Positions 4,961-44,968 are shown, counted from the first letter of the stretch. The stretch is 64,000 bases of DNA from a virus (IMGVR_UViG_3300028797_000097), one strand, 5' to 3'. Notes: generated by a model from the letters alone, not told the origin. Translations and numbers: made by a program.

Positions 4961-5846
4961 TGAGGTCGTAGAATTAACTAAAGAACAAATGGATGAATAT
5001 GTAAAATGTTCTACAGATATTTTTTATTTTTCCAAATACTTTTATATTTTAAGTGATGAAGGTGAAGCGCCAATACATTTAAGAGAATACCAAGAACGTA
5101 TAGTTCGCTGTCTTGTTGGAAAATATTATGATAAAGAAGGTTCTATTAGAAATAATAGAATAATAATGCAAGGGCGACAGACAGGCAAGACTACTCTGGC
5201 CACATTATATATTTTATGGTATGCACTTTTTAATGGAGACAAAACTATCGCTGTTCTGGCTAACAAGGAAGACCAAGCAAAAGAAATTATGTTGAGAATT
5301 CGCTCAGCTATTTTGAAACTTCCACTTTGGTTACAACAAGGAATTAATCCTGATAGAGGTGGTTGGTCAAAAGAAAGTATCGGTTTTGATAACGGAACTA
5401 AGATATTCTGTGCTGCTTCTGGTTCTTCTGCTATTAGAGGTAAATCTGTTGACTTGATGCTTGTCGACGAATTTGCATTCTTGCCTGAAGAAGAAGCTAA
5501 GGACTTCATTAAGTCTGTTTTCCCTACCCAATCTGGTAGAAAGGATGCTATGATGATTCTTATTTCTACACCGCATGGTATGAATGAATTTTATAACATC
5601 TGGATGAAAGCTATTTCTGGTGCAAGTTCTTATGTTCCTGCAAAGATTCAATGGTATGAAATTCCTGGAAGAGATGAAGCTTGGAAGAAGAGAATGATTC
5701 GAGACTTCGGTATTCAGATGTTCCAACAGGAATATGCTTGTTTAACTGGAGAACATAAAATAACAGTTCGATCCGAGGAAGGAATCGAACTAACGGAACC
5801 GATTTCAAAACTATATGAACTTTGGATGGACGGTTTCTTAAGATAA
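4926..5846 (+). CDS. terL: Terminase large subunit, ATPase domain only (gp17-like N-terminal domain, 306 aa)
   Basis: Walker A QGRQTGKTT, Walker B DLMLVDEFAF, coupling motif ILISTPHG and the FQQEYACL motif match the T4 gp17 ATPase. The ORF stops where the RNase-H-like nuclease domain would start. Confidence 0.8.
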   Translation: MFQKTAELRGHNEVVELTKEQMDEYVKCSTDIFYFSKYFYILSDEGEAPIHLREYQERIVRCLVGKYYDKEGSIRNNRIIMQGRQTGKTTLATLYILWYALFNGDKTIAVLANKEDQAKEIMLRIRSAILKLPLWLQQGINPDRGGWSKESIGFDNGTKIFCAASGSSAIRGKSVDLMLVDEFAFLPEEEAKDFIKSVFPTQSGRKDAMMILISTPHGMNEFYNIWMKAISGASSYVPAKIQWYEIPGRDEAWKKRMIRDFGIQMFQQEYACLTGEHKITVRSEEGIELTEPISKLYELWMDGFLR

Positions 5847-7525: not shown

Positions 7526-7636
7526 AAGTTTCGTGTCCCAATAGTAGTCTTTTATTATTTATAGTTTAGGGGTTTACAATTATTTTGAAAAATGTTATAT
7601 TTAGGTCAAACACTTAACAAAAAGGAAAAATCATCT

Positions 7637-8413
7637 ATGAAAAAAATCTATTCAATCTTTATTATGTTGGCGTTTGCACTCTTTACGGGTTGTACGACAG
7701 TCGACGAAACCGAAAGAGCAGTTGTTCTTGAATTCGGTAAGTACAGCGAAACTTTCGGACCAGGATTGCACTTCTATAATGTGTTCATGAAGAGCATTGT
7801 TACGATTCCCGTCAAAACACAGCTTGAAGCAAGCACATTCGAAGCAGGTTCTAAGGACCTTCAGCAAGTTGTTGTATCGTCAAACGTTAACTATCACGTA
7901 GATCCGCAAGCAGTTGGTAAGGTATATTCGAATTATGGTGTAAATTATGTTCAGACTATTCTTCAGCCTAAAATTAAGGAAACGGTTACGTCTATTACAC
8001 CACAGTATGTCCCTGAAGAAATGTTGCAGAAGCGAGAAGAAATTAATATTAGAATGAAAAATGCATTGAAGGCAAAGCTTGATTCTGCAGATGCACATAT
8101 TGTTATCGATGGTTTTACTGTAACTGGTTTCCAATTTACTCCTGCATTTAATTCTGCTATTGAAGAAAAGCAGGTTGCAGAACAGAAGGCATTGAAGGAA
8201 AAGAACGTTCTTAAGCAGATTGAATATCAGAATGAACAGAAGGTCGCAAAGGCAAGAGCTGATTCTACCGAAATGGCAATTAAGATGGCAACATTGAAGT
8301 CCCAGTCTGGCAAGGAATACTTGATGCTCAAGTGGATTGAAAAGTGGAATGGTCAGTTGCCGAATATGATGCCTGGTGATAACAAGATTATCCCAATGGT
8401 TAATGGACTTTAA
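7637..8413 (+). CDS. SPFH/band-7 (prohibitin/HflC-like) lipoprotein
   Basis: RBS aaagga is 7 nt before ATG 7637. Signal peptide MKKIYSIFIMLAFALFTGC with a Cys lipobox. SPFH core (VVLEFGKYSETFGPGLHF...). The annotated 7592 start overlaps a promoter-like repeat. Confidence 0.7.
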   Translation: MKKIYSIFIMLAFALFTGCTTVDETERAVVLEFGKYSETFGPGLHFYNVFMKSIVTIPVKTQLEASTFEAGSKDLQQVVVSSNVNYHVDPQAVGKVYSNYGVNYVQTILQPKIKETVTSITPQYVPEEMLQKREEINIRMKNALKAKLDSADAHIVIDGFTVTGFQFTPAFNSAIEEKQVAEQKALKEKNVLKQIEYQNEQKVAKARADSTEMAIKMATLKSQSGKEYLMLKWIEKWNGQLPNMMPGDNKIIPMVNGL

Positions 8414-8449
8414 AAACACCTAAAAATCTCCATATTTAGGGTCAAATCA

Positions 8450-8482
8450 AAAATACCAGTATTTTATACTGGTATTTTTTTA
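8450..8482. terminator. Bidirectional terminator (ataccagta/tactggtat stem)
   Basis: 9-bp stem flanked by A and T runs between convergent genes. Confidence 0.6.
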
Positions 8483-8824
8483 TTTTTTATTATTATTTCT
8501 ATTATTTTTTGTCTTACTTAATCGCCACTTTAGAAAGTCTCTTACTTTTTGTAAATCTGGATATTTAACGACTTGGTTTTCTGTAATATCATTCCAAATG
8601 TCCATATAACCGTTATACCAGCAGATAAACCACCAATAGTTTTGTGTCCCATACGCACGATATGAAATAATATCTGGACGACATTCATCCATTTTTCTTA
8701 CAAACAGATAAGATTCTTTACCAAAGTCATATCCGTCTTGGAAGAAAGAACCTAAGTCATATTGGGCAATATTATCAACCAATTCTTTATTTAAAAAGTT
8801 TGTTCTACTAGTTATATTATCCAT
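8480..8824 (-). CDS. LysM-like phage tail/baseplate protein (tail protein X-like)
   Basis: RPDIISYRAYGTQNYWWFICWYNG...NQVVKYPDL resembles LysM-like tail-X family motifs. TATAAATA lies 5 nt upstream. Confidence 0.35.
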   Translation of the reverse strand: MDNITSRTNFLNKELVDNIAQYDLGSFFQDGYDFGKESYLFVRKMDECRPDIISYRAYGTQNYWWFICWYNGYMDIWNDITENQVVKYPDLQKVRDFLKWRLSKTKNNRNNNKK

Positions 8825-8832
8825 ATTATTAT

Positions 8833-9654
8833 TTATATCTGATAATTATTATATAAATTACGGTATCTTTCCATTATTAAATGTTTTCCTTTAATATGGT
8901 CAAATAATCCGTCAGTTCTTTCATGTGCTTGATGCATAATTTCAATATCTTTTGAAATTCCAACATTTAAACCAGCATACATAGCATCTATACCCATAGC
9001 TACATCTTCATAACCCCAGCCTTTAGCAAATGTTTTACTGTCAAATAAGGCATTATCTATACCATATTCTTTTTTCATAAATTCTATGTGTTTTAGTAAT
9101 CCTGTTTTAGTTATACCGAAATTACATGACCAGCCAATCATTCCAGTAAGCATTAAATCCATTTTTTCATCAAATGTTTTTGCATTATTCCATGCTTTTA
9201 TTGCACCAGAAGTTATCCTAAGATCGTCATAATTTAATGGTCTTTTTTGCCAAAGTTCATCCATATTAGCGGTCAATAAATCAGATGCTGGAACTTTTAT
9301 GTTATCGATTGGTGTATGTCTTCTAGTTCCAAAGACTAAATCATATTTTTCTAATAATTTTTTATAATTTACAATTACTTTTTTATTTGCTAGCCAAGAA
9401 TCACCATCTATAAAAATTAATGCATCTGTTTTATTATTAAGAAAATATGATATTACAGAATTTCTATTAGTGCATCTTCCAGGATTTTTACTATTATCAA
9501 TTATATAAACATTTTTATAAAAATTAACTGGCATTTTACCATCTGATAATACATATATCATTGTAGGTATTTCAGTTTGATTATATATTGAAAAAATGGC
9601 TTTACTTAAAGATTCTTCTTGATTATGATTTGTTATTGCTATTGTTATATCCAT
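8833..9654 (-). CDS. Family-2 (GT-A) glycosyltransferase
   Basis: IAITNHNQEESL...IYVLSDG, DXD motif IFIDGDSW and a WGYEDVAMG motif. TATAAATA lies 4 nt upstream. Confidence 0.65.
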   Translation of the reverse strand: MDITIAITNHNQEESLSKAIFSIYNQTEIPTMIYVLSDGKMPVNFYKNVYIIDNSKNPGRCTNRNSVISYFLNNKTDALIFIDGDSWLANKKVIVNYKKLLEKYDLVFGTRRHTPIDNIKVPASDLLTANMDELWQKRPLNYDDLRITSGAIKAWNNAKTFDEKMDLMLTGMIGWSCNFGITKTGLLKHIEFMKKEYGIDNALFDSKTFAKGWGYEDVAMGIDAMYAGLNVGISKDIEIMHQAHERTDGLFDHIKGKHLIMERYRNLYNNYQI

Positions 9655-9715
9655 GACATATTTATAAAAAGAAAACCGTCTTTATTCAAGACGGTTTATA
9701 ATATTCTAATTTAAA

Positions 9716-12700
9716 TTATTGAAATGACCATGTACTTGTTGAAGCATCCCAATGTAAATCACCTTGACCCATCGCAGTAGTAAGGAAATCAAATAGCTTA
9801 CCAAGCATGCTATTAGGATCAGCTTTATATGTTTTTGCGGAAACTGTACCATCAGCAGAAACAATCATTGCATTTGATAATTCTACAACATTTGGATTTT
9901 CAATATCTGCATAATTTACCTTATTACAATTTGGGTCAGATACATCATGATTTGCACCACTAAAGAAATAACCGTCATATTCATATGCTTTAAGGCGACC
10001 ATTACCAATAGCAAATATTATACCACTATTTGGTATTGCTACCATCTCATCATTAATCCAAGCAGATGTAGTTCTTACACAACCATCTACTTTTTGGTTA
10101 TACTGACCCATAATAGTTTGATGCTGATTTGCTTTTAAGTATGCGCCAATAGTTGTGGAATGATGTCCTCTATTAACGTTACCTATACCCATACCAATCT
10201 GACAAGAACCGCTTAAACCATTATTATAAGTACCAATTAAAATATTATTACTATAATAAAGGTCACTATCACTAAATAATGTATTTCTATCACCAATTAA
10301 TACATTAGAATTATATTTTTTAGAAACACCATTGAGAACACCAAACATATAGTTTCTATCATTATGATCACTAGTATGTCCTAGTATATTTCCATGATCT
10401 GTAATACCAAATAATGTACCTGATTTAGTTGCACCAAAATAGTTATCAGTACCAATAATAGCATTATCAGTAGTAGTACCAGCAGATGTTTTAATATAGT
10501 TATTAGCACCATATACGAAGTTACGGTCTAATCTGTTATTAGTTGGTGGGACAGTAATTTCTAATCTATTACCTACACCATAAACGAAGTTTCTACTTGC
10601 ATTATTACTGTCTGTAGTTAAGTGCGCAGTTTCTGAGCCTAAATAACCAACACTATTCATTTCACCTATAACATAGGTTCCAATTGAATTTTGAAGAGTA
10701 TTACCAATACCACAGAGTAAGCATTCACAAAGATATTTAGCAATAAAGTCTCCATAGATAAATGAACGGTTTGTATACATAGCAACAGAATCGCTAAGGT
10801 CATTATAAGTATCGGTTTCATGCATATTACCAAAAATATAAGTTTCATTGGTATTATATGCAGCTCCTTTAAATATTATATTATTTTTTAAGCATTGAGT
10901 AGCGCCATTTAAGCTAGAACAAAAATTATTCGGTTTATCTGCTCTATAATATCCTTTGAATAAGAAGTTTTCTGTGGTATATCTGTTATTTGCTGAAAGG
11001 ACAGAACCGAATAATACATTTTGTGTAAATACTGAATTAACTTGTTTTTCAGTATCAAATGTAGCAGTAACTTGTGAATTAATTATAATATTATCAGCTA
11101 GATATTCAACACCAGAGAAACTTAAAGTATCACAGTTTTCAGAACCTTGAGAATTTAAGAAGATATTTTCGGTGAAATATCCCTGTGCAAATGTTGGTGC
11201 ATATGCTTTCAAGTCAGTATTATGAAGAATATTAGCATTAGCTATACAAAAATGATCAATTTCAACTTTTCTGGAATTAAACATTATATTTTTACTAAAT
11301 GAACCATTAAAATAAGGCCAACCAATATGTTTATGTAATATTATCTCACCATCATTACCAAGACTTTCCAGATTATATAGGAAGTTATACTCAATATTAC
11401 CTTCTTCTGCAGAGAATGTATCAGGAAAATCTACACCATGAGCATAGTTTCCGTGTATTGTGGTTGCATATATAGATGTTGATCTGATATATTGTAAATC
11501 ATAAAGTTTGTTATCATCAAATGAATGTGAAAATATATTTACAGAACCATTTGCATGATTTATAATATTATTTGTTCCATAAGTTGAAATAAGTTTAAAA
11601 TTACCAGGACTACCAACATTTTCAAAGTAATTATTATATAATGAACCACTTAATTCAAACCTACCGCCACCACCGGCAACATGTTTAACGGTATTACGAT
11701 TAAACTCACCACCACCTGAAATAGTTACATTAGAGACATCGTAAAATTCGTTTCCAATAATTCCTGGCGATCCTTCATTGTAGTTTCTTATATATTTTAC
11801 TCCACGAGCATGAGTAAAATCATTATCTTGAAATGGCATTTCAACAAATTGATTACCATAATAAGTGCTACGAATATTGCCGTAATCTATTTTTACTGTA
11901 GCATTAGTAAATTCATTGTGTTCAAAACCATACTTATACCAATCATCTGGTTTATTAACACCAACAATAGTAGAAAAATATATTTTATTAAGACCTACAC
12001 CAGCATCAGAATGACCAAGTGAAAAGTCATAGCCAGAAAAAAGTGATAAAAATGCAATATTATTATGGCCATCAATACGCGAACGAATATTGAAATTTTG
12101 ATAACCGATACTTCTAGTGTCAAATTTTACCGTATTACTATAATCTGGCAAATAATAATTATTTGCATTTAAGTTAGTAACACCTATTACGATATTTTCA
12201 CCACCAGATGCTAATACTCCTTTACCAATTGCAATATCATAGTTACGAATAGCAGAGTTTTCAAGACCAAATGCTAATGTAAAACCATCGTTATTCTGGC
12301 TAGTACTATCTAATTCCAAATCACTTTGTGTGGTTTCGGAATAGTTTTTAGAACCGAAAATGAAAGCGTTTCTTGTAGTGTTGGCAGAGTTATCGTTACC
12401 AACAATAAAATTCTGCGTATTATAAACTTTTGTATTATTGTCTTTAATTAATTTATCAGTGCTTTTAGATTCATTACCATTACCAATAATGATAGAATTA
12501 CCATGTGCGGAGTTACCAGAACCAATATAGTAATTATTATCGCCTTCTATATCAGTATCATGATCTTCAGACCAGTTTTTCCAGCTATTGCTGGCACCTT
12601 CAAGATCTTGCAATAATTCTATAATTTTATCATCACGATTCTTTAACGGTCCAATTGTATTTGCTTGTAACCAGTTACCATCAGCAACGGTATTTCTATC

Positions 12701-30726: not shown

Positions 30727-31218
30727 ATGATAGTAATCGCTTGGACGATTGTTGGTTTAACTGCACTTTTCATTATCTGCAGCTGCATAAAGAGTTGCGT
30801 CAGAATGGCAACAATGGAACGCTTTAAAAACGTTCCCATTCAGACACCTACCTTAATTGCAGATAAGAATAAGATTATTCAGTCATTATTTGATGATGAC
30901 GCTGAAAAGTTTTTCAAATATAAAGGTATAACATTCTGGTATTATAAGGATTCAAAGGATTACTTTGAAAAGCAGAGTTTTAGTGTTGCTGATGTAAAGA
31001 ATAAGATTGCACAGAAGTATGATGAACTCAAACAAGAACATCCAGGAATTACAGATTTTTTTGTTTCCATGACAAAACAAAATAATTATTTGACATGGGA
31101 ATTTGATCCGATTGACTTAAACTCTTATGTTCCGCCAAAGTCAACTAAGGATATTTGTATCGATGAGCTTAACAAATTAATAGAAAACAATGAAATAAAG
31201 GAAAAACATGACATCTAA
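30727..31218 (+). CDS. NfeD/YuaF-like membrane protein partner of flotillin
   Basis: N-terminal TM helix followed by a soluble domain of about 130 aa. It is immediately upstream of and overlapping the flotillin gene, as in the host yuaF-floT / yqiJ-yqiK operons. Confidence 0.4.
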   Translation: MIVIAWTIVGLTALFIICSCIKSCVRMATMERFKNVPIQTPTLIADKNKIIQSLFDDDAEKFFKYKGITFWYYKDSKDYFEKQSFSVADVKNKIAQKYDELKQEHPGITDFFVSMTKQNNYLTWEFDPIDLNSYVPPKSTKDICIDELNKLIENNEIKEKHDI

Positions 31219-32806
31219 TATGATCTACCCAATACTTATCGGAATTGCAGTAATTGCTTTAAGTATTCTCTTTTTTGCGTCTTATATCAAAGCCGCACCA
31301 GATGAAGTTAAAATCATCTCTGGTTTCCGACAACTAAGGACAATTATCGGACATTCAGGATTTAGAATTCCGTTCCTTGAGCAAGTCGATACTTTAAGCT
31401 TAAAGCTTATTCCAATCGATGTTAAGACCTCCGGTATTCCAACGTCAGATTATATTAATATCGCAGTTGATGCAGTCGTTCAGGTCAAAATTTCTGATGA
31501 AACTGCTGATATTAAGGTTGCTGCACAGAACTTCTTAAATAAGAATCCAGATGAAATTAAGAAGATGATTAGTGAAGTTCTTGAAGCAAACATGAGAGAG
31601 ATTGTTGGTCAAATGGAACTTGTCAAGCTTGTTAATGACAGACAACAGGTTTCTAAGAAGGTTCTCGAAAATGCTTCTCCAGACTTAAAGAAACTCGGTA
31701 TTGTTATTCAAACATTTAATATTCAGAACTTCTCTGATTCAGCAAAGGTTATTGAAAACCTCGGTGTTGACAAGGCAGTTGCAATTCAGAAAGCAGCAGC
31801 AATTTCTAGGGCCAATGCAGAAAGAGACGTTAAGATTGCTCAGGCAGAAGCAGCTAAGGAAGCAAACGATGCACAGGTTGCATCTAACCTCGAAATCGCA
31901 CAGAAGCAAAACGACTTAGAAGTTAAGAAGGCTGACCTTAAGAGAATTTCCGATAGCAAGAAGGCTGAAGCTGATGCCGCTTACGAAATTCAGAAGCAAG
32001 AACAGCAAAAGACCATTAACATTGCAGCTGCAGCAGCTGAAGTTGCAAAGCAGGAAAAACAGATTGAAATTCGTGAAAGAATGGTAGCTGTTAGACAGAA
32101 GGAACTCGAAGCTGAAATCCAGAAGAAGGCAGAAGCAGAAAAGCAAGCACAAATTCAGAAGTCTGATGCTGACCTTTATAGACAACAGAAGGAAGCTGAA
32201 GCAGCACTCTTCACACAGAAGCAACAGGCTGAAGCTATTAAGGCTAAGGCTGAAGCTGATAAGCAAAAAGCATTCGCTGAAGCTGCAGCAACTAAGGCTA
32301 AGGGTGAAGCAGAAGCTGATGCTGTAAAGGCTAAGGGTCTTGCAGAAGCAGCAGCACTTGACCAGAAGGCTGAAGCTATGAAGAAGTATGGTGATGCAGC
32401 AAGACAGGAAATGCAGCTCAGAACTATTGAAAAGTATTTCGAACAGTTACCAGCTATTGCAAGTGCCGTTGCAAAACCGATGGAAAAGATTGGCAATATC
32501 AATATGTATGGTGAAAGCGGTACAGCTAAGCTCACTGGCGATATTACCAAGACACTTACACAAGTTTCTAGTGGTTTAACTGATTCTCTTGGTATTGATC
32601 TTAAGACTGTTCTCGGTTCTATGTTCGGTGCACATCTTGCTGGACTCGAAAAGAAACCGTCGCAGGTCCCTGTTGAAGTTGCAAAGAACGATCCAGCAGT
32701 TCCAGCTACCCCAGCTCAGGCTACTCCAGTAGAATCTCCGGTTCAAATGTCTGAATCTGATATTGAACAGGCAGCAGCAGCATTTCTTAGAAAGCGTAAG
32801 CACTAA
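31208..32806 (+). CDS. Flotillin-like SPFH protein (FloT/YqiK-like, 532 aa)
   Basis: N-terminal TM segment, SPFH domain and a long A/E/K-rich flotillin-type coiled-coil (AEAEKQAQIQK...KAEADKQKAFAEAAATKAKGEAEADAVKAKG). Confidence 0.85.
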   Translation: MTSNMIYPILIGIAVIALSILFFASYIKAAPDEVKIISGFRQLRTIIGHSGFRIPFLEQVDTLSLKLIPIDVKTSGIPTSDYINIAVDAVVQVKISDETADIKVAAQNFLNKNPDEIKKMISEVLEANMREIVGQMELVKLVNDRQQVSKKVLENASPDLKKLGIVIQTFNIQNFSDSAKVIENLGVDKAVAIQKAAAISRANAERDVKIAQAEAAKEANDAQVASNLEIAQKQNDLEVKKADLKRISDSKKAEADAAYEIQKQEQQKTINIAAAAAEVAKQEKQIEIRERMVAVRQKELEAEIQKKAEAEKQAQIQKSDADLYRQQKEAEAALFTQKQQAEAIKAKAEADKQKAFAEAAATKAKGEAEADAVKAKGLAEAAALDQKAEAMKKYGDAARQEMQLRTIEKYFEQLPAIASAVAKPMEKIGNINMYGESGTAKLTGDITKTLTQVSSGLTDSLGIDLKTVLGSMFGAHLAGLEKKPSQVPVEVAKNDPAVPATPAQATPVESPVQMSESDIEQAAAAFLRKRKH

Positions 32807-35172: not shown

Positions 35173-35967
35173 ATGATAACTAATAAAACTGTATTTAATG
35201 TTAATCGTGTAGCAATACCATTCTCTAAGAAAGAATTAGAATCGGTAATCAATCAGAATGTAGTAAATGGGTATATTTCTACTACATATGATAATTTAAT
35301 ACAAACTTTGGAAGATATTTCCCGTTCTAAGGAATATCCAGTTGTATTAAATCCGAATGAAATTTTTACTTCATCTAATAATCCGTTAATTAGAAATGAC
35401 GTTTTGATTAGGGTTGAAGGTTTACAATCCTATGGTGAATTCATTAATAATGTTATAAGAGATAGCGAAGATGGTTATTGGACCGATTTTATGACTTATT
35501 CTGAATTATTCAAGGATGAAATCAAGAAAGTCAAAATACTTGCTTATAAGAAGTTTTTGTGGAATTATCATAATATTGATGAATGGTTTACGTCTAAGAA
35601 TATCGGTTTGATTGACGATGATAAGAATATGTTGGTTACTGATTTCCAGACATTTAAGGAAAGAGTTTTATTAACAGATGACTATGAAACCTTTATTGAT
35701 TCTTGTAAAACAGAAGATGTTGCTAACGCTATAAAATATATCATAAAGAAAGGTTGTGAAGTTTTACAAAAATATAAGGTTGAACTGAATAATCATATTG
35801 CGATTGATAATAAAAGACAGACAAATATAATTTTGAAGAATCCAATTATTACAAAGATATTCTTACAGTCTTCTGCTGCATCTCGTTGCAAGAAAGACTG
35901 GCCAAGAATTAAATTTACTACATTGGATAAGAAATCATTTGACACTATTGGTATTTGGGAAGTTTAA
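35173..35967 (+). CDS. Late (structural module) protein, 264 aa
   Basis: First gene after the late promoter; overlaps the next gene. Confidence 0.4.
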   Translation: MITNKTVFNVNRVAIPFSKKELESVINQNVVNGYISTTYDNLIQTLEDISRSKEYPVVLNPNEIFTSSNNPLIRNDVLIRVEGLQSYGEFINNVIRDSEDGYWTDFMTYSELFKDEIKKVKILAYKKFLWNYHNIDEWFTSKNIGLIDDDKNMLVTDFQTFKERVLLTDDYETFIDSCKTEDVANAIKYIIKKGCEVLQKYKVELNNHIAIDNKRQTNIILKNPIITKIFLQSSAASRCKKDWPRIKFTTLDKKSFDTIGIWEV

Positions 35968-37268
35968 TTATGTCATTTAAAAAATCAGAAACTATTACAA
36001 AGGAAGGCGGATATAGAAAGTTTGATTCCGTCGAGGAAATGCAATCAGCTACTAACTGGTTTTTTAAATACATTACTTATAATGATGGAACTACTGAAGA
36101 GTGGACTCCAGGACATTTACCAAATAAAAATAAGAATGATTATCCACCTCCGCTTGGAGAAGTAACTGGAACGATCTTCTTAGATTCTTCTCCTGGTATC
36201 ATTTACATGACCAGTCTTATTGGTGATATTATCATCGATACGAAAGGTCCTGAATTTGTTTCTGAAGATGTTCAGTATGTAGTTATTGATTCTAACAGAA
36301 AGTGTAGCTTTACAATTAATTCTGATACGTTAATTGATGTTTGCCAATTAAGAATAAAATGTGGTGATGACGTTCTTTATGAATGTCTTAGAAAAGAAAC
36401 AGAACATACAATTTCTGAAAGTATTTCTAAACTATCTTATAATAAGACAGGAAATACTTATGTTTTGTCTTTTACATTAGATAAAAGCTATTCAGTTGAT
36501 AAACTTAATGAAGATCAGCTTAAGATTGAAGTCTGGGATATTGCAGCAAATAAAGCTGAATATACAACAGATGGAAAATGGGATTATATAACACTTGATG
36601 ATGATGAGAAAATCCAACATCTTATTATTGATTTTATTGATATTTATCCAAAAAATATGATTGTTTCAAAAAACATTGAAGGAAAAGTATTAGTTAGGGT
36701 TACTAATCCAAATAAGTTTTTATGGGCTTATCAACCGACAGTAAATTTATTTAATGATAGTATTGGTGTTATTGATGAATCAACATTAACATATTATGCA
36801 GATCAGGGAGTATTAACCTTTTATATTACACATATTAATAAGAAAGGAAATATCAATGTTGAAGCATGGATTGATGTTGATAATAATGAAATTAAAGAAT
36901 TTGTAAGAAATGCAACTTATGCTGATGCTACATTAGGACCATTTATATTTGCTGATGAAGGACGTAAGTATAAATTTAATTCTTATACTCCAGAATATCT
37001 TACTGACGAAATATATAAGGCATTTGTAAAATTTACAGAAGATTTCTTGAATACTTCGCAGGAAAGTTTGTCTACTGGAAATGCTGTAAGTACACTTGAA
37101 AAAATTGCTAGAATAAATAATTTTAATGACCCATTCAGAACAGAAACTCCTTTGCTTAGTGAATATGTAAAGCAGTTTAATATTGAAGTAAATCCAAATT
37201 TAAATGAATATGTATATTTCTTGGATGCAGCAAGAACTATAAAGGACAAGGAAACTGATGGAAATTAA
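35955..37268 (+). CDS. Late structural-module protein, 437 aa (baseplate/wedge candidate)
   Basis: Translationally coupled chain of late genes. Confidence 0.4.
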   Translation: MGSLIMSFKKSETITKEGGYRKFDSVEEMQSATNWFFKYITYNDGTTEEWTPGHLPNKNKNDYPPPLGEVTGTIFLDSSPGIIYMTSLIGDIIIDTKGPEFVSEDVQYVVIDSNRKCSFTINSDTLIDVCQLRIKCGDDVLYECLRKETEHTISESISKLSYNKTGNTYVLSFTLDKSYSVDKLNEDQLKIEVWDIAANKAEYTTDGKWDYITLDDDEKIQHLIIDFIDIYPKNMIVSKNIEGKVLVRVTNPNKFLWAYQPTVNLFNDSIGVIDESTLTYYADQGVLTFYITHINKKGNINVEAWIDVDNNEIKEFVRNATYADATLGPFIFADEGRKYKFNSYTPEYLTDEIYKAFVKFTEDFLNTSQESLSTGNAVSTLEKIARINNFNDPFRTETPLLSEYVKQFNIEVNPNLNEYVYFLDAARTIKDKETDGN

Positions 37269-38577
37269 CGATTTACCACAACAATATAAAGACGAAGCAT
37301 ACAGACTTCTTCGTTCTATCTATAAGTTTATTCCTTATTATAACCAGATTAAAGGAACGTATCTTGGTATACAATTTATTTTAAATACCATGGGTTTATG
37401 TGCATCGATTGTCGAGCTTTGGGCAGCACCTAATAATATTACGAACTTTTCTGAAAATGCAGAATATTATAGAGAAGATGAAATCCATGCAGTTCGTAGA
37501 TTTACTGAAGATGTCGCAATGCATGCAGGAGTTAAAGATTATTATTTAACTTCTACATTTGATGTTGATTTGACTTCTCAAGCTGGCATTACATTTAAAG
37601 AATTTAACGGTATGGCTAAGACAATAATTACCGTTATTAATGAAGTTCGTCCAGTTACAAGATGTTTAAGAAAATTATATTACTTATTGCTTGTTAATTC
37701 AAATATTCATTTTGATTATTATTTTGAAAATCAAAAATCTCCTAATTTGGAATATGGTAATCCAGGTGTAGTTGGTGAAAATCCATATAATTTAGATTTT
37801 AGAAGATTTGACTATTTGTGGTATTGTTATAGAGATGAACCATTTAATAAATGTGAATATGATTTTAGATTAAAACAATTATCAAAAATATATTTACCTT
37901 ATGATGCATTAGGTGCTAGATTTACTCCAAATGGTGATGATTATACAACTGATAGCACTTATACAATGATTAATACTTATTTTAATCTAAATAAGTTAAA
38001 TGTAAAGTTAAGAAAATCGCAAGTAGAAAAATTTAGATTTAAGATTTTTATAAGACGTAGAGATAGGATTTTTGATATTCGTTCTACACCTGTTATAGAA
38101 GGAAATCTCGGAACTGATATTAGTATCAGTTTAGATCGTAACGGTATTTATATAAATTTATTAAATGCTGGTTTACAAACTGCATTAAATTTAGATGAGT
38201 TATTTTCTGATTTACGTCCATTACCAACACCAGCTGGGAAAAAAGGACAACTTGGTAATTATGATTTATTCATTGCGACTAATTTTATTATTGTCTTAGG
38301 AACTAATTACTTATTCCAAGATAAGGATATTTATGATTGGTCGCAGAATGCAGAAATTAACTTCTTATTAGACGAATACTGTGGATTAATTCCAGAAGCA
38401 TCGAGCTATGCTAGTGGTGTTCATCTTGCTTCTCAGCATAATGATGTATTGGTTGGTGAAGATATGTCTGAAGAAGATGATACTGAATATCCAGATGGAT
38501 TATTAACATATTCAGAAGATGATAATGATGATTCTGCATATATTACCACAGAAGACGGTGAATATATATATAGATAA
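37258..38577 (+). CDS. Late structural-module protein, 439 aa
   Basis: Overlapping start; acidic C-terminus. Confidence 0.4.
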   Translation: MEINDLPQQYKDEAYRLLRSIYKFIPYYNQIKGTYLGIQFILNTMGLCASIVELWAAPNNITNFSENAEYYREDEIHAVRRFTEDVAMHAGVKDYYLTSTFDVDLTSQAGITFKEFNGMAKTIITVINEVRPVTRCLRKLYYLLLVNSNIHFDYYFENQKSPNLEYGNPGVVGENPYNLDFRRFDYLWYCYRDEPFNKCEYDFRLKQLSKIYLPYDALGARFTPNGDDYTTDSTYTMINTYFNLNKLNVKLRKSQVEKFRFKIFIRRRDRIFDIRSTPVIEGNLGTDISISLDRNGIYINLLNAGLQTALNLDELFSDLRPLPTPAGKKGQLGNYDLFIATNFIIVLGTNYLFQDKDIYDWSQNAEINFLLDEYCGLIPEASSYASGVHLASQHNDVLVGEDMSEEDDTEYPDGLLTYSEDDNDDSAYITTEDGEYIYR

Positions 38578-38588
38578 AGAGAGGATTT

Positions 38589-39059
38589 ATGGCAAGAGCA
38601 AAAACACTTAAATTAAAAGCTGGAACTAATATTACATTGACAAAAGATGATACATCTGTAACAGTAGGATGTATTAGTGATGGTCCATCTGTTACTAATG
38701 AAAAAATCAAAATTTATGATATAAAAATTATAGCAGACCGGCAAGAATCAACAGGCTATCGTTTTGATGGTACGCCATCTGCAGAAGAATTAATATCTTT
38801 ATTGGTTGGTGATACTGGAGCTGGTAGTTTAGCAATATTAAGAGCTATAGAAGATGTCGGTGAAGGCATAAAAAATGAAAAATGGTATTATTTACAAGAT
38901 ATTAGTGGTTGGCATATTGAAATGCAGTCAAACATGTATGTTTTTACATTTATCCATACTAATGCAGTAACTAGTATTTCCCATGATGTTATTACATGTA
39001 ATGTTGGAAAAACTGGTGAAGGATATAGTACAGTATGGACACTATCACATATGCAATAA
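38589..39059 (+). CDS. Late structural-module protein, 156 aa
   Basis: N-terminus KLKAGTNITLTKDD resembles the fibre N-terminal module. Confidence 0.4.
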   Translation: MARAKTLKLKAGTNITLTKDDTSVTVGCISDGPSVTNEKIKIYDIKIIADRQESTGYRFDGTPSAEELISLLVGDTGAGSLAILRAIEDVGEGIKNEKWYYLQDISGWHIEMQSNMYVFTFIHTNAVTSISHDVITCNVGKTGEGYSTVWTLSHMQ

Positions 39060-39089
39060 TTTAAAACAATAATATTACAATAAAAAGGG

Positions 39090-39118
39090 TTGACAAAAGT
39101 CAGCTCTTTTTCTATATT
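39090..39118 (+). promoter_or_regulatory. Canonical sigma70 promoter TTGACA-N17-TATATT upstream of the cadherin-like gene
   Basis: -35 at 39090-39095 and -10 at 39113-39118. Near-identical context to the promoter at 30671 (aaaaagggTTGAC...tttttCTATATTT). Confidence 0.6.
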
Positions 39119-39177
39119 TATTTAAATTAATTAGAAAACTATAAATATATAGAATTTTTAATAAGAAGGTAATAAAA

Positions 39178-42100
39178 ATGAAAAAGATAATCGGAATATT
39201 ATTAGTTTTAGCTGCATTTGTTTTTTCTGCAGACTATAAGCCGTTTAACTTTGAAACTATCCCACAAGATTCTGCAAGTCAACAGGATCAATTTGATTAT
39301 ATGCTTCAATATAAGTTATATGGTCATGATTTTATCAAAATGGGAAATGATGTTCGTATTCCAGACAAGTCAGGTTGGAATGGTACTGTAGGTAATATTA
39401 CTTCTAATGCAAGATTGACCTTGGGCGGTCCGATTCTTGCAAATGGTAGTATTTCTATGGGTGATGGTCCAAATAATATTACTGGACCAGTTCGCTCAGT
39501 CGATTTTGATCTTGGAAATGTAAATAATTCCAAAATCGCAAGCCCTGTTTGCTTAAGCGGAACCGCAAATGCTAATGCATTGTCTGCGATTGAAGATCAT
39601 AAGACTTATTCTTTCGATGCAAACATTTGTAAGGACAGCGTTCCTGCTGCACCTACAAATCTTTATATGCCGATTGTTGATTGGGATAATCTTGGTGCTG
39701 ATGTTAAGTTGGATGATATTGTTTTAAGTGGCAATGATGCTACAGATACTATTTTTGTTCCTAAAGGTGAAGGCGCATATAAGATTTTAATTGATAAGAT
39801 TCAGTTTGGCCTTGGCGGAACTAATGCAAGCCATTTGTATGTTAAGATGCAAGATGGCGGTAGATTGACCCAGATTTTCGTAAAGAATTTTATTTATGGA
39901 AATCATGCTACAATTCAGGTTGTTTATGATACTGACAGTGGAAGCGTAGTATTGAATCAGGACCAATATCGTGGTAACTTGATGTTCTATTCTAATAATG
40001 TTATCAGTTTTGATAATATGGACTATGCTCCTATTCAAGGTTCATTTATTTCTACTGATTCAATTTTCTTGGGAAGAAACGTTAATATTTCTGGTCAGTT
40101 ATTGACTAATAAGCTTGAAATTGGAAATGATATTGATGGTAAAAACTTCAGATTTGTTAAATTCGACCCTGATACAATCGATGTTAAGCTTGATAAGTAT
40201 GGTGGTTTGAGAGAAAATGATTCTACTGTTATTATTCCTATTGAACTAAGTGATACTGCTACTATCGCTGTATATTTTAGATATTGTTTTGATTTGAAAG
40301 ATGGTGTAACTGTTGAAGATTTTAATATTCCGCCTACATTCCCTATTTGTAACATCGATCAACCGAAAGAAGTATCTATTCCTATCGGTTCAAAGATTCC
40401 AAGTGATCCAATTAAGGTAAATGTTAAAGTCGATACATTGACAGAAAATGAATATCTTGTAATTAAGATTGATAGCATTTCTGGTGCTATTCTTCCTGAT
40501 GGTAAGACTGAAGGAGAATTAAAGATTAAGATTATTGACGCTCCTATTGGACATGTTGAATTTGATACTACAAAGACATATGAGTTTGAGGAAAATAAAC
40601 TTGGTGAAGTAGATGTAATCAAGATTTTAAATGGAACTGAAAATACTCGTTTCCATCTTGATAGTGCATATACTGATAGATATGAATTGGATAGCTTGAC
40701 TGGTAAGTTGACACTTATTGGTGAACCATTAGATTATGAAAAGGCTGCAATCGATGTTATTAAGGTTACATTGACTGATACTGGCAATGTAAGTGTAACT
40801 CGTAATATTCCTATTACAGTAATTGACGTTAATGAAGCACCTACTATCGATGATGTAACTGCTAATCTTCCGGAAAATCTTATTCATCCATTCATGGTTG
40901 AAAAGTTAGTTGCAAAAGATCCAGATACTAAGACAACATTTACTCAAAATGTTTTCAGTATGCTTGAAGGTGATACAAGCTTATTTAGAGTAGATTCTGA
41001 TGGTGAAATTTGGGCAAAGAAGACATTTGACTATGAAACTGATCAGAAAACCTATACTTTGAAGGTTTTGGTTCATGATAAGACTAATCCAGCATTGAAG
41101 GATAGTGCTATTGTTACTGTTAATATCACAAACAGCAATGATGGTCCTAAGTTTGACAGAAATGATACTACATTCCATGTAAATGAAAATGAACCATTTA
41201 AGGATAGTGTAAAGGCAACTGACCAGGATGGTGATAAGATTACTTATTCTATCATTGGAAGTGTTCCATTCAAAATTGATTCTACTGGCGTAATTACTTC
41301 TACTAGAACATTTGACTATGAAAAAGAAAAAGAATTTACATTCAAGGTCATTGCTGATGATGGTAAAGCAAAAGATACAATGACTGTAAATATTATAGTA
41401 GACAATGTAAATGAGCCTGTTCATACCAAAGATACAACTTTTGTTGTAGATGAAGGTAAAACTGGTGAAATCGGTAAAGTCAAAGGAGAAGATGAAGATG
41501 GAAAGCCTGTTAAATTTTCTTGCGATGATAGTGTGCATTACAGCATCGATACTAATACTGGTATTCTTAGACTGGTAGACCCATTTGACTATGAGATTAC
41601 AAAATCTGATACCATAAAGGTATTTGTTACTGATAGTCTATTTACAGATACTGCCATAGTTATTATTAATGTTAATAATGTAAATGAACCTCCTGTATTA
41701 CAGCCAAATGATTCTCTTACAGTTCCAGAAAATTGTAAGAATTGTATTGTTGGTATTATTACAGCAGTTGACCCTGACAGTGATAAGGTAATTTACGAAG
41801 TTAAGGAACCTGGTTTCACAATCGATACAAATGGAGTATTAAAGCTCACTGATCCTCTTGATTATGAGAAAACTCCAGAAGTTAAGATTACAGTTATTGC
41901 AAAGGATTCTAGTGGCGCAGCTGATACTGCCACCTATATAATTAAGATAACTGATATTAATGAACCAGTCCATGTTCAAGATACAACTTGTTCTGTAAAG
42001 GAAAATTATACTGGTAAGGTTTGCAAGATTACAGCAACTGATGAAGATAAAACAACTCCTAAATATATAATTACCGATACTACAAATTATTCTATCGATT

Positions 42101-43986
42101 CTACTGGTGTAATTACTATTAAGAACCCGATTGATTATGAAAAGAAGACTAAGGACACAGTAACTGTTATTGTAACTGATGACGAATTTTCTGATACCGC
42201 ACAGGTAATTATCAGAGTTCTCGATGAACCTGAAAAGGTTGAAATTACCACATGGGATGATGAAAAGCCTAAAGATACAGTAAAGACAAATGACCCAGAT
42301 CATAAGTTCGAATGGGAACTTTGTGAAGGTGATAGCTGTATTAAGCATGAAGAATTTCCGCATATCAAGAAAGATACAACTATCAAGGTATGTAATGATA
42401 AGAAGACTGTTTGTGATTCAGTTGTAGTTTTATTCAATGATGCACCTCCAGTTGTTACTTTGACAAATGCAAAGTCTACTGATGCATTGATTGACTATAT
42501 TACAATCGAAGAACAGAAGGACGATAAGATTTATGTCAACAAGAAAGAAAATCCAATTACTGTAACTGTTAGAGATACTGTTCATAAGACAGAAAAGAAA
42601 TTTGATATTAAAGTTAAGCTTGATACAATTCCTACTAAGGATATTAAGATTAAGGAATATAACTACTTGATTGATGAATCTCTTGCAACTCATACAGCAA
42701 TAGGTAACAATCTTATTGAAGTTTCTGAAGTTATTTCTGTTGACGGTAATAAGATAACAATTTCTAAGATTGTTGATAAGAAGACAATGGAACCAATCGA
42801 TACAGTTCAAACTGTTACTTATCATAAGAAGGTTGGTGGTAAGGACGTAGTTGTTTCTTATAAGACTGATAATCTTACTGGTCAGAGAGTTTCTGATTAT
42901 GAAATTTCTTACATGGCTGATTCTTGCACTAAGGTTACATATACTGTAAATGATAAGAAGGAAATTGTTAAGAATAAGGAAGGAAATATTGCATATAATA
43001 TCACTTATGATTATGTAGATGATTTTGGTAACAAAGCATCTGCATCAGTTGAAATTATCTTCGACGATATTCCGCCTAAGGTTGAAATTCTTGGACCTGG
43101 TCCAATGGAACATTTCAATACAAATGCAATTCCAGTTAAGTGGACAGTTAATGGCGAAACACAAGATACTTTGACATTACAGAGACTTGAAAAAGGTGTT
43201 AACTATATTATCAGAAGATATGTAGATAAGGCTGGTAACGTCGCTGCTGATACAGTCACAGTTCTTATGAATGAAGCCAAGGATATTGATATTGAAATTA
43301 TCAATCCAGTAACCAAGGTTGACCAGGATAAAGTTGATGAATATTATTCTGAAGGTCATAAGTATAATGATAAGAAACCGTTTGACGTCAAGTTTGTTGA
43401 CCCGAAGAACGATACAATTCCAGATGTAATTGGTGTTGGTTTCAAGGTTGATATTGTACTTCCGTCTGTTTCTCCTACTGGTTCTCTTGCAACATTGGAT
43501 GACATTGTAAAGAATGGTCAGATTCCAGTTGATGATAAGGGAAATATCGTTGGTGCTTCTACAAAGGGAATTCCAGTAGATAAGTATGTTGAAGAACATT
43601 GTACTGAAGAATTCCAGAAGGATTACGATAAGTATGGTTTGAATATTCCGCTTTATGACGTTACTTATAAACTTCATCTTTGGGTATATACAACTACTGC
43701 AAACTATGTAAATGATTTTAATATTGAATTTACATTGAATGATGAAGCTAAGACTACTACAGCAGGAACTGTCCAGATGGTTATCGACTGGTTGTCTGAT
43801 AAGGATGGAAACGTCAAGGCTAAGAACCATCATGCTTTAGGAACAGGCGCATATATAACCAAGTTGTTCAGCACTTCTGTTGCAAAACACCGTTGTGATT
43901 ATAAGGATCAAGTTAAGGGTGATAGAACTGTAAAGAAGGATGAAACAATGAAAACATTTGGTTATAAGCGACCAAACAACAAGTAA
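39178..43986 (+). CDS. Giant secreted cadherin-repeat protein (1602 aa)
   Basis: Sec signal peptide MKKIIGILLVLAAFVFSADYK. Multiple repeats of about 100 aa ending in cadherin-type linkers (VIDVNEAPTI, NSNDGPKF, VDNVNEPVH, VNNVNEPPV, ITDINEPVH). Confidence 0.7.
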   Translation: MKKIIGILLVLAAFVFSADYKPFNFETIPQDSASQQDQFDYMLQYKLYGHDFIKMGNDVRIPDKSGWNGTVGNITSNARLTLGGPILANGSISMGDGPNNITGPVRSVDFDLGNVNNSKIASPVCLSGTANANALSAIEDHKTYSFDANICKDSVPAAPTNLYMPIVDWDNLGADVKLDDIVLSGNDATDTIFVPKGEGAYKILIDKIQFGLGGTNASHLYVKMQDGGRLTQIFVKNFIYGNHATIQVVYDTDSGSVVLNQDQYRGNLMFYSNNVISFDNMDYAPIQGSFISTDSIFLGRNVNISGQLLTNKLEIGNDIDGKNFRFVKFDPDTIDVKLDKYGGLRENDSTVIIPIELSDTATIAVYFRYCFDLKDGVTVEDFNIPPTFPICNIDQPKEVSIPIGSKIPSDPIKVNVKVDTLTENEYLVIKIDSISGAILPDGKTEGELKIKIIDAPIGHVEFDTTKTYEFEENKLGEVDVIKILNGTENTRFHLDSAYTDRYELDSLTGKLTLIGEPLDYEKAAIDVIKVTLTDTGNVSVTRNIPITVIDVNEAPTIDDVTANLPENLIHPFMVEKLVAKDPDTKTTFTQNVFSMLEGDTSLFRVDSDGEIWAKKTFDYETDQKTYTLKVLVHDKTNPALKDSAIVTVNITNSNDGPKFDRNDTTFHVNENEPFKDSVKATDQDGDKITYSIIGSVPFKIDSTGVITSTRTFDYEKEKEFTFKVIADDGKAKDTMTVNIIVDNVNEPVHTKDTTFVVDEGKTGEIGKVKGEDEDGKPVKFSCDDSVHYSIDTNTGILRLVDPFDYEITKSDTIKVFVTDSLFTDTAIVIINVNNVNEPPVLQPNDSLTVPENCKNCIVGIITAVDPDSDKVIYEVKEPGFTIDTNGVLKLTDPLDYEKTPEVKITVIAKDSSGAADTATYIIKITDINEPVHVQDTTCSVKENYTGKVCKITATDEDKTTPKYIITDTTNYSIDSTGVITIKNPIDYEKKTKDTVTVIVTDDEFSDTAQVIIRVLDEPEKVEITTWDDEKPKDTVKTNDPDHKFEWELCEGDSCIKHEEFPHIKKDTTIKVCNDKKTVCDSVVVLFNDAPPVVTLTNAKSTDALIDYITIEEQKDDKIYVNKKENPITVTVRDTVHKTEKKFDIKVKLDTIPTKDIKIKEYNYLIDESLATHTAIGNNLIEVSEVISVDGNKITISKIVDKKTMEPIDTVQTVTYHKKVGGKDVVVSYKTDNLTGQRVSDYEISYMADSCTKVTYTVNDKKEIVKNKEGNIAYNITYDYVDDFGNKASASVEIIFDDIPPKVEILGPGPMEHFNTNAIPVKWTVNGETQDTLTLQRLEKGVNYIIRRYVDKAGNVAADTVTVLMNEAKDIDIEIINPVTKVDQDKVDEYYSEGHKYNDKKPFDVKFVDPKNDTIPDVIGVGFKVDIVLPSVSPTGSLATLDDIVKNGQIPVDDKGNIVGASTKGIPVDKYVEEHCTEEFQKDYDKYGLNIPLYDVTYKLHLWVYTTTANYVNDFNIEFTLNDEAKTTTAGTVQMVIDWLSDKDGNVKAKNHHALGTGAYITKLFSTSVAKHRCDYKDQVKGDRTVKKDETMKTFGYKRPNNK

Positions 43987-44062
43987 TAAATAAACCAGGA
44001 GTAAATCCTGGTTTTTTATTTTAGGGTTTACAACTAAAAAATATTTGCTATATTATAATATT

Positions 44063-44245
44063 ATGCAAAAAACAAAAATTGATATCGTAGTATTTGTAGT
44101 TATTTTTATTTTCGTATTTAGTTTAATGATATTTGGATGTAGTTCTGAAAGTTCTACTTCTCCTGAAGATATGTATCAGAAGTGTATTACTGTTAACGAA
44201 GAAAATCCAGATGCATGTGACCAAGAATTTACAATATATAAATGA
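44063..44245 (+). CDS. Small lipoprotein (60 aa)
   Basis: ATG 44063 lies within the TTG-start ORF listed at 44045. Hydrophobic signal with IFGC, then an acidic Cys-containing mature part. Confidence 0.45.
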   Translation: MQKTKIDIVVFVVIFIFVFSLMIFGCSSESSTSPEDMYQKCITVNEENPDACDQEFTIYK

Positions 44246-44724
44246 ATTATTTAAAAACATATTTCGCAATTATTGCCAAAGCGGCAGGGAGAGAGCCATC
44301 GATATTATATGATAAGCATCATATAATTCCTCAGTCATTGGGTGGTCCAGACGTGCCTACGAACTGGATTTATTTAACCCCTAGGGAACATATGATTGCA
44401 CATCATTTGCTTGCCAGAGCTTATCCAGACGTCGAATTATTGCAGTCTGGATTTAACCTGAAGAAAGTCTGTATTAAGTATTATGACTATTATAGATGGT
44501 CTATGAGGTTAAAAGACTTAGCAGGTATGATAGAATATAGTAAGAATAAAAAAGAGATTGTAACGCGTTTAAGAGTGCTTCTGGACGCAATTGGTGATGT
44601 AGACCTAGATAAACATATTCCGGTAAAACAACAGCCTAATATGGTCAAATCTAAAGCACCAGCAGTTACTGAAAAAACTGAAAAAATAGAAACTAAAAAA
44701 GGAAAAAAGAAATGCAAAGAATAA
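44242..44724 (+). CDS. HNH homing-endonuclease-like protein
   Basis: DKHHIIPQSLGGPDVPTNWIYLTPREHMIAHH (HNH H-N-H core). Located upstream of nrdD, a common homing-endonuclease context in T4-like phages. Confidence 0.75.
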   Translation: MNYLKTYFAIIAKAAGREPSILYDKHHIIPQSLGGPDVPTNWIYLTPREHMIAHHLLARAYPDVELLQSGFNLKKVCIKYYDYYRWSMRLKDLAGMIEYSKNKKEIVTRLRVLLDAIGDVDLDKHIPVKQQPNMVKSKAPAVTEKTEKIETKKGKKKCKE

Positions 44725-44915
44725 TTGGAATCTTACTGTTACTATGTGGCATGTCATTTGCATGTTCACCCTTCTTCACTTCTGAATTTTGTAAGGAGAT
44801 AGATTTCTGGAATACTCAGTATTCTAGTTATCATTACAAATATTTTGAAATTTCTCCTAACTGGCTACTCTGGATTAACGGTTATCAAGCGTTTAATTTC
44901 ACGATTCGTTTCTAA
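44712..44915 (+). CDS. Small secreted or lipoprotein-like protein (67 aa)
   Basis: Signal-like N-terminus MQRIIGILLLLCGMSFAC. Confidence 0.3.
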   Translation: MQRIIGILLLLCGMSFACSPFFTSEFCKEIDFWNTQYSSYHYKYFEISPNWLLWINGYQAFNFTIRF

Positions 44916-44938
44916 ATAAAAATTTACAAATTAATTTA

Positions 44939-44968
44939 AACTATGCAAAATTTTGCATAGTTTTTTTT
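44939..44968 (+). terminator. Rho-independent terminator (aactatgcaa/ttgcatagtt) plus T8
   Basis: Perfect 10-bp stem followed by a T-run. Confidence 0.6.

Follow-up and report, generated by a model that had tools for sequence, protein, structure and literature searches.

The viral sequence IMGVR_UViG_3300028797_000097 contains a large gene whose product is, in our judgement, probably an exported, envelope-displayed and host-derived adhesin-like protein that acts on the infected Fibrobacter cell. The stretch analysed, hereafter the window, is 64,000 nt long and forms part of a phage genome of ~400 kb. The gene occupies positions 39178-43986 on the plus strand and encodes a protein of 1602 amino acids (aa). 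The assignment is carried by a cleavable signal conserved among relatives, by end-to-end homology to signal-bearing Fibrobacter proteins and by a location outside the phage structural genes. This evidence supports an earlier reading of the same DNA (the original prediction), in which the open reading frame (ORF) was taken to encode an exported adhesin or surface-remodelling protein with a Sec signal peptide. Three points were absent from the original prediction: that the gene derives from the host, that its head domain has a beta-solenoid fold, and that this head is exchanged as a cassette. The protein is divided as follows:

39178-39228, plus strand: Sec (SPI-type) signal peptide, aa 1-17, predicted cleavage between VFS and AD.
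39229-40182, plus strand: head domain, aa 18-335, a right-handed beta-solenoid of the ice-binding-protein (DUF3494)/tapirin fold.
40183-40542, plus strand: Calx-beta-like domain, aa 336-455.
40543-42240, plus strand: six tandem cadherin repeats, aa 456-1021, with xEN, DxD, DYE and DxNExP motifs.
42241-43983, plus strand: C-terminal region, aa 1022-1602, several immunoglobulin (Ig)/FnIII-like sandwiches and a terminal module ending in FGYKRPNNK.

The N-terminus of the protein reads MKKIIGILLVLAAFVFS, followed by ADYKPF, and displays the n, h and c regions of a cleavable Sec signal: a positive start, 13 hydrophobic residues, and a cleavage site with V at -3 and S at -1. It is the sole strongly hydrophobic segment in the whole protein, and in the AlphaFold model aa 2-16 form a detached helix of low confidence. 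The mature product after predicted cleavage is an acidic protein of 176 kDa with an isoelectric point (pI) of 4.7, while its final 45 residues make up a basic tail (pI 9.9). The sequence of the signal varies among the relatives, yet its length, charge and small-residue cleavage site are kept in all 27 of them, and in these 27 the signal ends directly before a conserved mature start, AD[VYL][KR]PF. The segment thus seems to evolve as a functional signal peptide would, free in sequence and constrained in properties. In all ten relatives traced, moreover, an in-frame stop 0-25 codons 5' of the start closes the frame. Since the signal properties and the conserved mature start are kept in the relatives, and upstream stops close the frame, the possibility that the signal-like segment is an artefact of start choice, which had been raised in the original prediction, was rejected.

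Next to the signal, the cadherin repeats are the best-defined part of the protein by sequence. The Pfam Cadherin model (PF00028) matched five stretches with 144.4 bits, against a gathering cut-off of 28.8; a hidden Markov model search of this kind had been proposed with the original prediction. All four calcium-binding-type motifs can be aligned across the six units of aa 456-1021, as the predicted calcium-binding-like linkers implied. The linker DxNExP occurs five times and the sixth unit closes with a degenerate LDEPE. The number of repeats had been put at at least ten; there are only six, and the remainder of the protein consists of the solenoid head, the Calx-beta-like domain and generic Ig-like sandwiches. 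The repeats and the stalk they form are presumed to be calcium-stiffened.

The other domains were characterized mainly by structure. The AlphaFold model of aa 1-460 was confident (pLDDT 86, pTM 0.86). By fold only, the modelled head resembles ice-binding proteins and tapirins, and the domain after it resembles Calx-beta. Pfam DUF3494 had no match on the whole protein, nor on the isolated head at E values up to 10, and Calx-beta sequence models had none on the isolated fragments. The model of the C-terminal 588 aa was weaker (pLDDT 68) and consisted of beta-sandwiches with generic Ig/FnIII matches only. In the whole protein, PHROGs and NCBIfam matched nothing except the cadherin repeats; a phmmer search of the PDB returned nothing for the N-terminal or the C-terminal part, and BFVD held no significant viral structural neighbour.

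The origin of the gene was traced through both of its ends. We searched 1.84 billion representative proteins for the head domain with phmmer and obtained 148 clusters, in which nearly all full-length members carry the domain at residues ~20-400 of a protein of 1200-3300 aa. Ten of the more distant clusters were looked up, and the four with a source name are Fibrobacter "cadherin repeat domain-containing" proteins, which the phage head matches with E values of 1e-52 to 1e-13 and 35-42% identity. Among these, P0269 (WP_290914319.1, 2877 aa) is encoded next to another member of the family on a contig of 660 kb; since that contig carries CinA, MutS, ScpB and Fib_succ_major genes in its neighbourhood, P0269 is chromosomal. 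In BLASTP comparisons with P0269 and P0155, the phage protein aligned in the same order through the cadherin repeats and the entire C-terminal region, with FGYKRPxxK at its close, at 30-36% identity. The Fibrobacter homologues also open with a signal, which ends in A-x-A directly before ADVxPLYF.

An alignment of the C-terminal module was then used to scan 185,579 species, each represented by a single genome. The module was found at 56 loci, 52 of which belong to Fibrobacter, Fibrobacteraceae or Fibrobacterales, have 30-40% identity to the phage module and often occur as tandem pairs. The remaining four loci are phage-type (63-81% identity) and lie in metagenome-assembled genomes (MAGs) named Prevotella, Methanobrevibacter, Clostridia and Fibrobacter; at least the first three labels evidently result from misbinning. 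Contigs of the phage clade (P0004; L042, L044, L090) are deposited within MAGs under the names Methanobrevibacter, Prevotella and Clostridia, so that the NCBI protein name carries a misleading organism. The family is thus restricted to Fibrobacterales and this phage clade. Because the architecture of the phage protein matches giant chromosomal proteins found only in Fibrobacterales, we take the phage gene to be a shortened, host-derived copy, and the host of the phage is very probably Fibrobacter.

Fibrobacter genomes usually hold two family members in tandem, as at L041 (2677-18634), L054/L059, L047/L070 and L046/L071. In F. succinogenes S85, FSU_2931 and FSU_2932 are likewise an adjacent pair (PMC4619616). 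FSU_2932, a candidate member of the family, is a 318-kDa signal-bearing cadherin domain protein that was detected among the envelope proteins of S85 only when microcrystalline cellulose was the substrate (PMC4619616); a second large protein search aimed at it returned short fragments only.

Searches with the big protein yielded 395 homologues, located on contigs as long as 424 kb. A nucleotide and protein search of the GenBank phage collection gave no match except a weak, cadherin-only hit to Brevundimonas phage Gurke; the window thus resembles no cultured phage. Nothing relevant was found in the literature on phage cadherin proteins and rumen or Fibrobacter jumbo phages, nor any Fibrobacter phage in the literature searched. 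The phage copies are 54-99% identical to one another, versus 30-40% to the Fibrobacter copies. Between the window and its relative L001, the big protein is 77% identical, compared with 65% for UvsW, 80% for UvsX and 56% for flotillin, and is thus about as conserved as the core replication genes. All domains have omega values of 0.1-0.55, which indicates purifying selection. The number of repeats varies among the relatives, and total length ranges from 1306 to 2057 aa.

Conservation is unevenly distributed along the protein. Divergence is greatest in the head, where relatives are 31-66% identical to the window copy, versus 63-88% for the last 312 aa, which are the most conserved part and are common to the Fibrobacter proteins. 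In pairs of relatives such as L009/L038 or L006/L005, the stalk and C-terminus differ by a synonymous divergence (dS) of 0.02-0.11, whereas the head and the Calx-beta-like domain are saturated, with dS above 1 and a nonsynonymous divergence (dN) of 0.4-0.6. A saturated head on a near-identical stalk and C-terminus means that the head was exchanged as a cassette. A similar picture is seen in L021, in which nrdD is 98% identical to that of the window and the head just 42%. Taken together, such a pattern is expected if a stalked protein docks by a conserved end and binds its ligand with a tip that varies.

The gene appears to form its own transcription unit, with the following signals:

39082-39111, plus strand: intrinsic terminator, a hairpin of 13 pairs with a T-run, which ends the upstream operon 35173-39059.
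39090-39118, plus strand: sigma70-like promoter of the early/middle type, TTGACA-N17-TATATT, 11/12 consensus positions.
39140-39147, plus strand: TATAAATA box of the T4-late-promoter type, 30 nt before the ATG.
39163-39169, plus strand: Shine-Dalgarno-like AAGAAGG, 8 nt before the ATG; relatives have AAGGAG there.
43992-44014, plus strand: intrinsic terminator directly after the stop codon, a 9-pair stem with a T-tail.

As the two terminators bracket the big gene, it is monocistronic. Relatives have hairpins at the same place as the upstream terminator, with differing stem sequences. The original prediction had the gene driven by a canonical sigma70 host promoter, and this stood only in part. 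The site exists, fits the consensus at 11 of 12 positions and belongs to a promoter class, TTTACA-N16/17-TATATT, for which 8 of 11 copies fall within the intergenic 6% of the window. Against it, sigma70-like matches occur region-wide at chance level (80 observed versus 72.5 expected), and its -35 hexamer lies inside the stem of the upstream terminator. A promoter of the form T(T/G)(T/G)ACA-N17-TATATT is also present upstream of the gene in L001, L002, L018, L020 and L021 and is absent from the other lineages, so that with the window it is limited to six lineages, while the near-universal element is the TATAAATA box. Members of the promoter class, located almost exclusively between genes, are found at 7573, 12855, 14032, 15992, 39090, 44027, 62765 (minus strand) and 23590 (minus strand). 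Before UvsW and before the cadherin gene, both promoter classes stand in tandem.

TATAAATA is the T4 late-promoter consensus. Of the 25 upstream regions listed, 24 have the box, or a copy with one mismatch, 20-35 nt ahead of the ATG; L024 is the one without it. The window contains 27 copies, versus 14.6 expected, and 19 of the 27 stand between genes, in the right orientation and with 4-130 nt to the start codon that follows, including those of sheath-stabiliser-like, fibre-like and UvsW genes. By analogy with T4, the box may mark late expression here. Late transcription factors of the gp55/gp33 type were not found among the scanned ORFs of the window, which is a part of the genome. At seven positions (3941, 9659 on the minus strand, 13200, 24788, 35158, 2346 on the minus strand and 8830 on the minus strand), TATAAATA lies only 4-7 nt before the ATG. 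If it is a T4-type late promoter, the mRNAs of these genes would be leaderless or nearly so.

The genes around the big gene are those of a T4-type phage. The window encodes a gp3-like sheath stabiliser, terminase, UvsW, UvsX, UvsY, a gp41-like helicase, a gp32-like single-stranded DNA-binding protein, NrdD/NrdG and fibre-like genes; its GC content is uniform at ~32%, and it holds no tRNA genes. The big gene lies outside recognisable head, tail and fibre genes, among genes of replication and nucleotide metabolism. Its neighbours vary among the relatives, with nrdD on either side, UvsW/UvsX and flotillin nearby and, in L002, a signal-bearing xylanase; the gene is therefore not part of a conserved structural module.

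Two membrane-scaffold proteins of the SPFH/Band7 family are encoded in the window (7637-8413 and 31208-32806). One has a lipoprotein-type signal, MKKIYSIFIMLAFALFTGC. The second, a flotillin, contains a membrane segment at its N-terminus; in L001 and L002, the flotillin gene follows the cadherin gene one or two genes further downstream. The L002 xylanase (8086-9846) has a Sec signal, combines GH10 with the carbohydrate-binding module (CBM) CBM6 and is located directly upstream of the cadherin gene. The same architecture is found in the F. succinogenes xylanases FSU_2292-2294 (PMC3079729). By eye, the C-terminus of the L002 protein looks like a short tail of the type IX secretion system (T9SS), and no model matched it.

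Herein, we describe how the protein would work. Transcription would start as a single-gene unit, from the sigma70-like promoter in this lineage and from the TATAAATA promoter in nearly all. The product would be exported by Sec across the inner membrane and cleaved after residue 17, leaving the 176-kDa mature protein that starts with ADYKPF. Its C-terminal ~310 aa may then be handled by the host machinery that carries or docks the host's own giant cadherin-repeat proteins, which makes the C-terminal module a candidate secretion or anchoring module. The Calx-beta-like domain, the six cadherin repeats and the Ig-like domains would build a stiff stalk on which the head is held away from the cell. 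The head, as a specificity module swapped among phage alleles, would bind a ligand. In sum, the adhesion of the infected cell, or what adheres to it, would be altered by a protein that stays outside the virion. Surface display, as opposed to periplasmic retention or release, is inferred. As for the ligand, the fold, by analogy with tapirins and ice-binding proteins, points to a surface that is flat and repetitive, e.g., crystalline cellulose or a fibre polysaccharide, and head swapping would suit a target that varies, e.g., the surface of a cell or a rival phage. The protein may serve fibre attachment, the tethering of neighbouring cells, or superinfection exclusion and receptor replacement.

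Several observations weigh against this interpretation. No known signal for transport across, or anchoring in, the outer membrane was found by T9SS C-terminal domain models, by a lipobox or as a second hydrophobic segment. Type IX secretion has been proposed for Fibrobacter enzymes with basic terminal domains (Raut et al., PMC6851124). The big protein has the N-terminal Sec signal of a type IX cargo and lacks a Por_Secre_tail match: the corresponding models (TIGR04183/Pfam) matched none of the C-terminal fragments of the phage and Fibrobacter proteins at E values up to 10. The likeness of the head to ice-binding proteins and tapirins is a match of fold only, at 9-16% identity, and an invariant ligand such as cellulose does not fit easily with the swapping of head cassettes. 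The TATAAATA box is also found ahead of genes that T4 expresses early, e.g., nrdD. Finally, the assignment of the host draws on a single gene family and on the Fibrobacter-like GH10-CBM6 gene of one relative.

Two narrower readings are sub-cases of the export reading. According to the first, the gene is an auxiliary adhesion gene, a compact stand-in for the fibre adhesin of the host. It would hold the infected cell on cellulose or plant fibre, so that, during the shutdown of host gene expression, the cell keeps feeding and remains near new hosts. We regard this as a tentative possibility. The head shares its fold with tapirins, which are cellulose-binding adhesins, and with ice-binding proteins, which bind flat lattices; FSU_2932, the candidate homologue in the host, was detected only in envelopes of cells grown on cellulose; the signal-bearing GH10+CBM6 xylanase stands directly upstream in L002, and the phage also encodes the two SPFH/flotillin scaffolds. 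Nevertheless, the head is the fastest-evolving part and is swapped between near-identical alleles, which is unexpected if the ligand is invariant, and no CBM or DUF3494 model matches the big protein.

The second reading invokes superinfection exclusion or receptor replacement. Here the shorter phage version, using the same docking module, would displace or mask host proteins that are presumed receptors, and further adsorption to the infected cell and its debris would be blocked. That phages encode envelope proteins able to block receptors is well established, e.g., for T5 Llp and the Cor proteins. The docking end is the most conserved part and is common to the host proteins, whereas the distal head is hypervariable and swapped like a receptor-binding module; in this lineage, an early-type sigma70-like promoter accompanies the TATAAATA box. 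However, the sole promoter kept in nearly all relatives is of the late type, while exclusion proteins are usually early. A protein of 176 kDa would also be a very costly mask, and neither PHROGs nor any other family linked it to known exclusion proteins. We therefore consider this reading rather unlikely.

The protein might instead belong to the virion, as a Hoc-like decoration of capsid or tail or as a fibre, its hydrophobic N-terminus having no export function. Ig-like and cadherin-like domains are common on virions, the late-type TATAAATA promoter is shared with the sheath-stabiliser-like and fibre-like genes, the gene is conserved at the level of core genes, and its heads are swapped in a modular way like those of tail fibres. 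Yet the signal evolves as a signal, with its cleavage site kept, and the cellular homologues carry the same signal, while virions of tailed phages assemble in the cytoplasm. In addition, the neighbours are replication and nucleotide-metabolism genes that change between relatives, and neither PHROG structural families nor BFVD structures gave a significant match. A virion role, named as the alternative in the original prediction, is thus highly improbable. Least of all can the gene be bacterial and placed here by a chimeric or misassembled contig, a negligible prospect that was rejected: although certain copies occur in MAGs that bear the names of cellular organisms, the gene stands beside T4-like genes (UvsW, UvsX, nrdD) on >30 independent contigs from many samples, several of them 290-424 kb long, the GC content of the window is uniform, and the phage copies resemble one another far more than they do the Fibrobacter copies.

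The original prediction further joined the big gene to two tiny lipoproteins in one envelope module. The region downstream of the gene is organized as follows:

44027-44054, plus strand: sigma70-like promoter, TTTACA-N16-TATATT, heading a separate small transcription unit.
44063-44245, plus strand: lipo1, an orphan ORF of 60 aa, lipoprotein-like signal (LMIFG before C) read from the sequence.
44242-44724, plus strand: HNH homing endonuclease, a mobile gene (phrog_655, E 4e-24).
44712-44915, plus strand: lipo2, an ORF of 67 aa, lipoprotein-like signal (MSFA before C) read from the sequence.
44938-44963, plus strand: terminator that closes the unit of small ORFs and HNH gene.

The two small ORFs with lipoprotein-like signals and the HNH endonuclease thus exist as described. 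The module is not supported: lipo1, HNH and lipo2 form a unit of their own, from their promoter to their terminator, and the big gene is bracketed by its own terminators. A tblastn search of 40 related loci returned no match for lipo1. A counterpart of lipo2 was found only in L020/L030, with 58% identity and the lipobox cysteine kept; there it again adjoins an HNH gene, 2 kb from the big gene. In itself, lipo2 is a genuine small protein that has been conserved. L021, the closest syntenic relative, has nrdD and HNH genes 98% and 97% identical to those of the window, yet neither small ORF. The three genes are therefore lineage-specific and not kept as a unit with the big gene, and the idea of a module was rejected. 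The position of the HNH family differs between the window (44242-44724), L001 (9257-9631), L018 (5161-5505), L020 (16608-17054) and L016 (7899-8015); in L016, the gene appears to interrupt nrdD.

Upstream of the big gene lies the four-gene operon 35173-39059 (264, 437, 439 and 156 aa), which has its own TATAAATA box and no Pfam, PHROG, PDB or phage match. Three of its products are 79%, 57% and 47% identical to those of L021 and one has no match there. Because the operon is hypervariable in a relative whose nrdD is 98% identical, the cadherin gene is located in a recombination-prone zone. Two further observations concern other parts of the window. A homing-endonuclease-like gene (3953-4960) overlaps a fragment of the terminase large subunit (4926-5846, 306 aa, matching the C-terminal part of the profile only), which suggests that the terminase gene was split or invaded. 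On the minus strand, four consecutive genes at 50994-53096 (203, 124, 144 and 211 aa) share the N-terminal motif MNLxEAxxLLKxxGY, with which a 267-aa ORF of L020 (14564-15367) also begins.

In the rumen, Fibrobacter plays a key part in the breakdown of cellulose, and to our knowledge the mechanism by which it adheres to crystalline cellulose is still unsettled. If the export reading is true, viruses directly manipulate bacterial attachment during fibre digestion. The Fibrobacterales-specific family of giant stalked proteins with a tapirin- or ice-binding-like head provides candidate adhesins or phage receptors, and the swappable head amounts to a library of binding specificities made by nature. 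As a marker, the gene family also assigns to a host a clade of jumbo phages whose copies are now binned under Methanobrevibacter, Prevotella and Clostridia. More speculatively, and we offer this as a doubtful though attractive scenario, a clade of T4-like rumen phages of ~350-420 kb, apparently the first phages attributable to Fibrobacter, captured and miniaturised the stalked adhesin of their host and display it on infected cells, the host family is the long-sought surface adhesin of Fibrobacter for crystalline cellulose, and the interchangeable heads reprogram what the host binds, be it plant fibre or neighbouring cells.

Several known systems share single features with the phage protein. 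The tapirins of Caldicellulosiruptor (PDB 6n2c, 6n2b, 4wa0) have a like fold, with 12-16% identity and no detectable sequence homology to the head; they have no cadherin stalk and, unlike the phage protein, adjoin type IV pilus genes. DUF3494/IBP-1 proteins, including a surface-anchored protein with Ig-like and DUF3494 domains from Shewanella frigidimarina (PDB 6bg8), have the right-handed beta-solenoid in common with the head. Their Pfam model misses the phage head and, since the phage comes from the rumen with its 39 C, the ligand is not ice. T4 Hoc likewise combines tandem Ig-like or cadherin-like domains with a late-type promoter in a T4-like phage. Hoc, however, is a capsid protein without a signal, whereas the phage protein has a conserved signal and signal-bearing cellular homologues, and matches no structural family. 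T5 Llp, Cor, lambda Lom/Bor and cyanophage psbA are likewise made by phages and act in the envelope or physiology of the host instead of the virion. No sequence relation to them was found; Llp, Cor and Lom/Bor are small, whereas the phage protein has 176 kDa, a modular stalk and head and end-to-end host homology, and has been maintained throughout a clade of jumbo phages of the lytic type.

The phage protein is a true member of the cadherin-repeat superfamily and of the Fibrobacterales family of giant proteins. Its closest counterparts are the giant proteins of Fibrobacter (WP_290914319.1, MCQ2105338.1 and probably FSU_2931/FSU_2932 of F. succinogenes S85). Like it, they have a Sec signal before a mature start of the form AD-x-x-P-(F/L)-x-F, a homologous head (35-42% identity), cadherin repeats, and a homologous C-terminal region of ~580 aa that runs to FGYKRPxxK (30-40%). 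The phage protein, at 1306-2057 aa versus about 1740-3330 aa, is half their size or less because it has fewer repeats. It also differs in being phage-encoded, in standing under phage promoters and in having its head exchanged among phage alleles.

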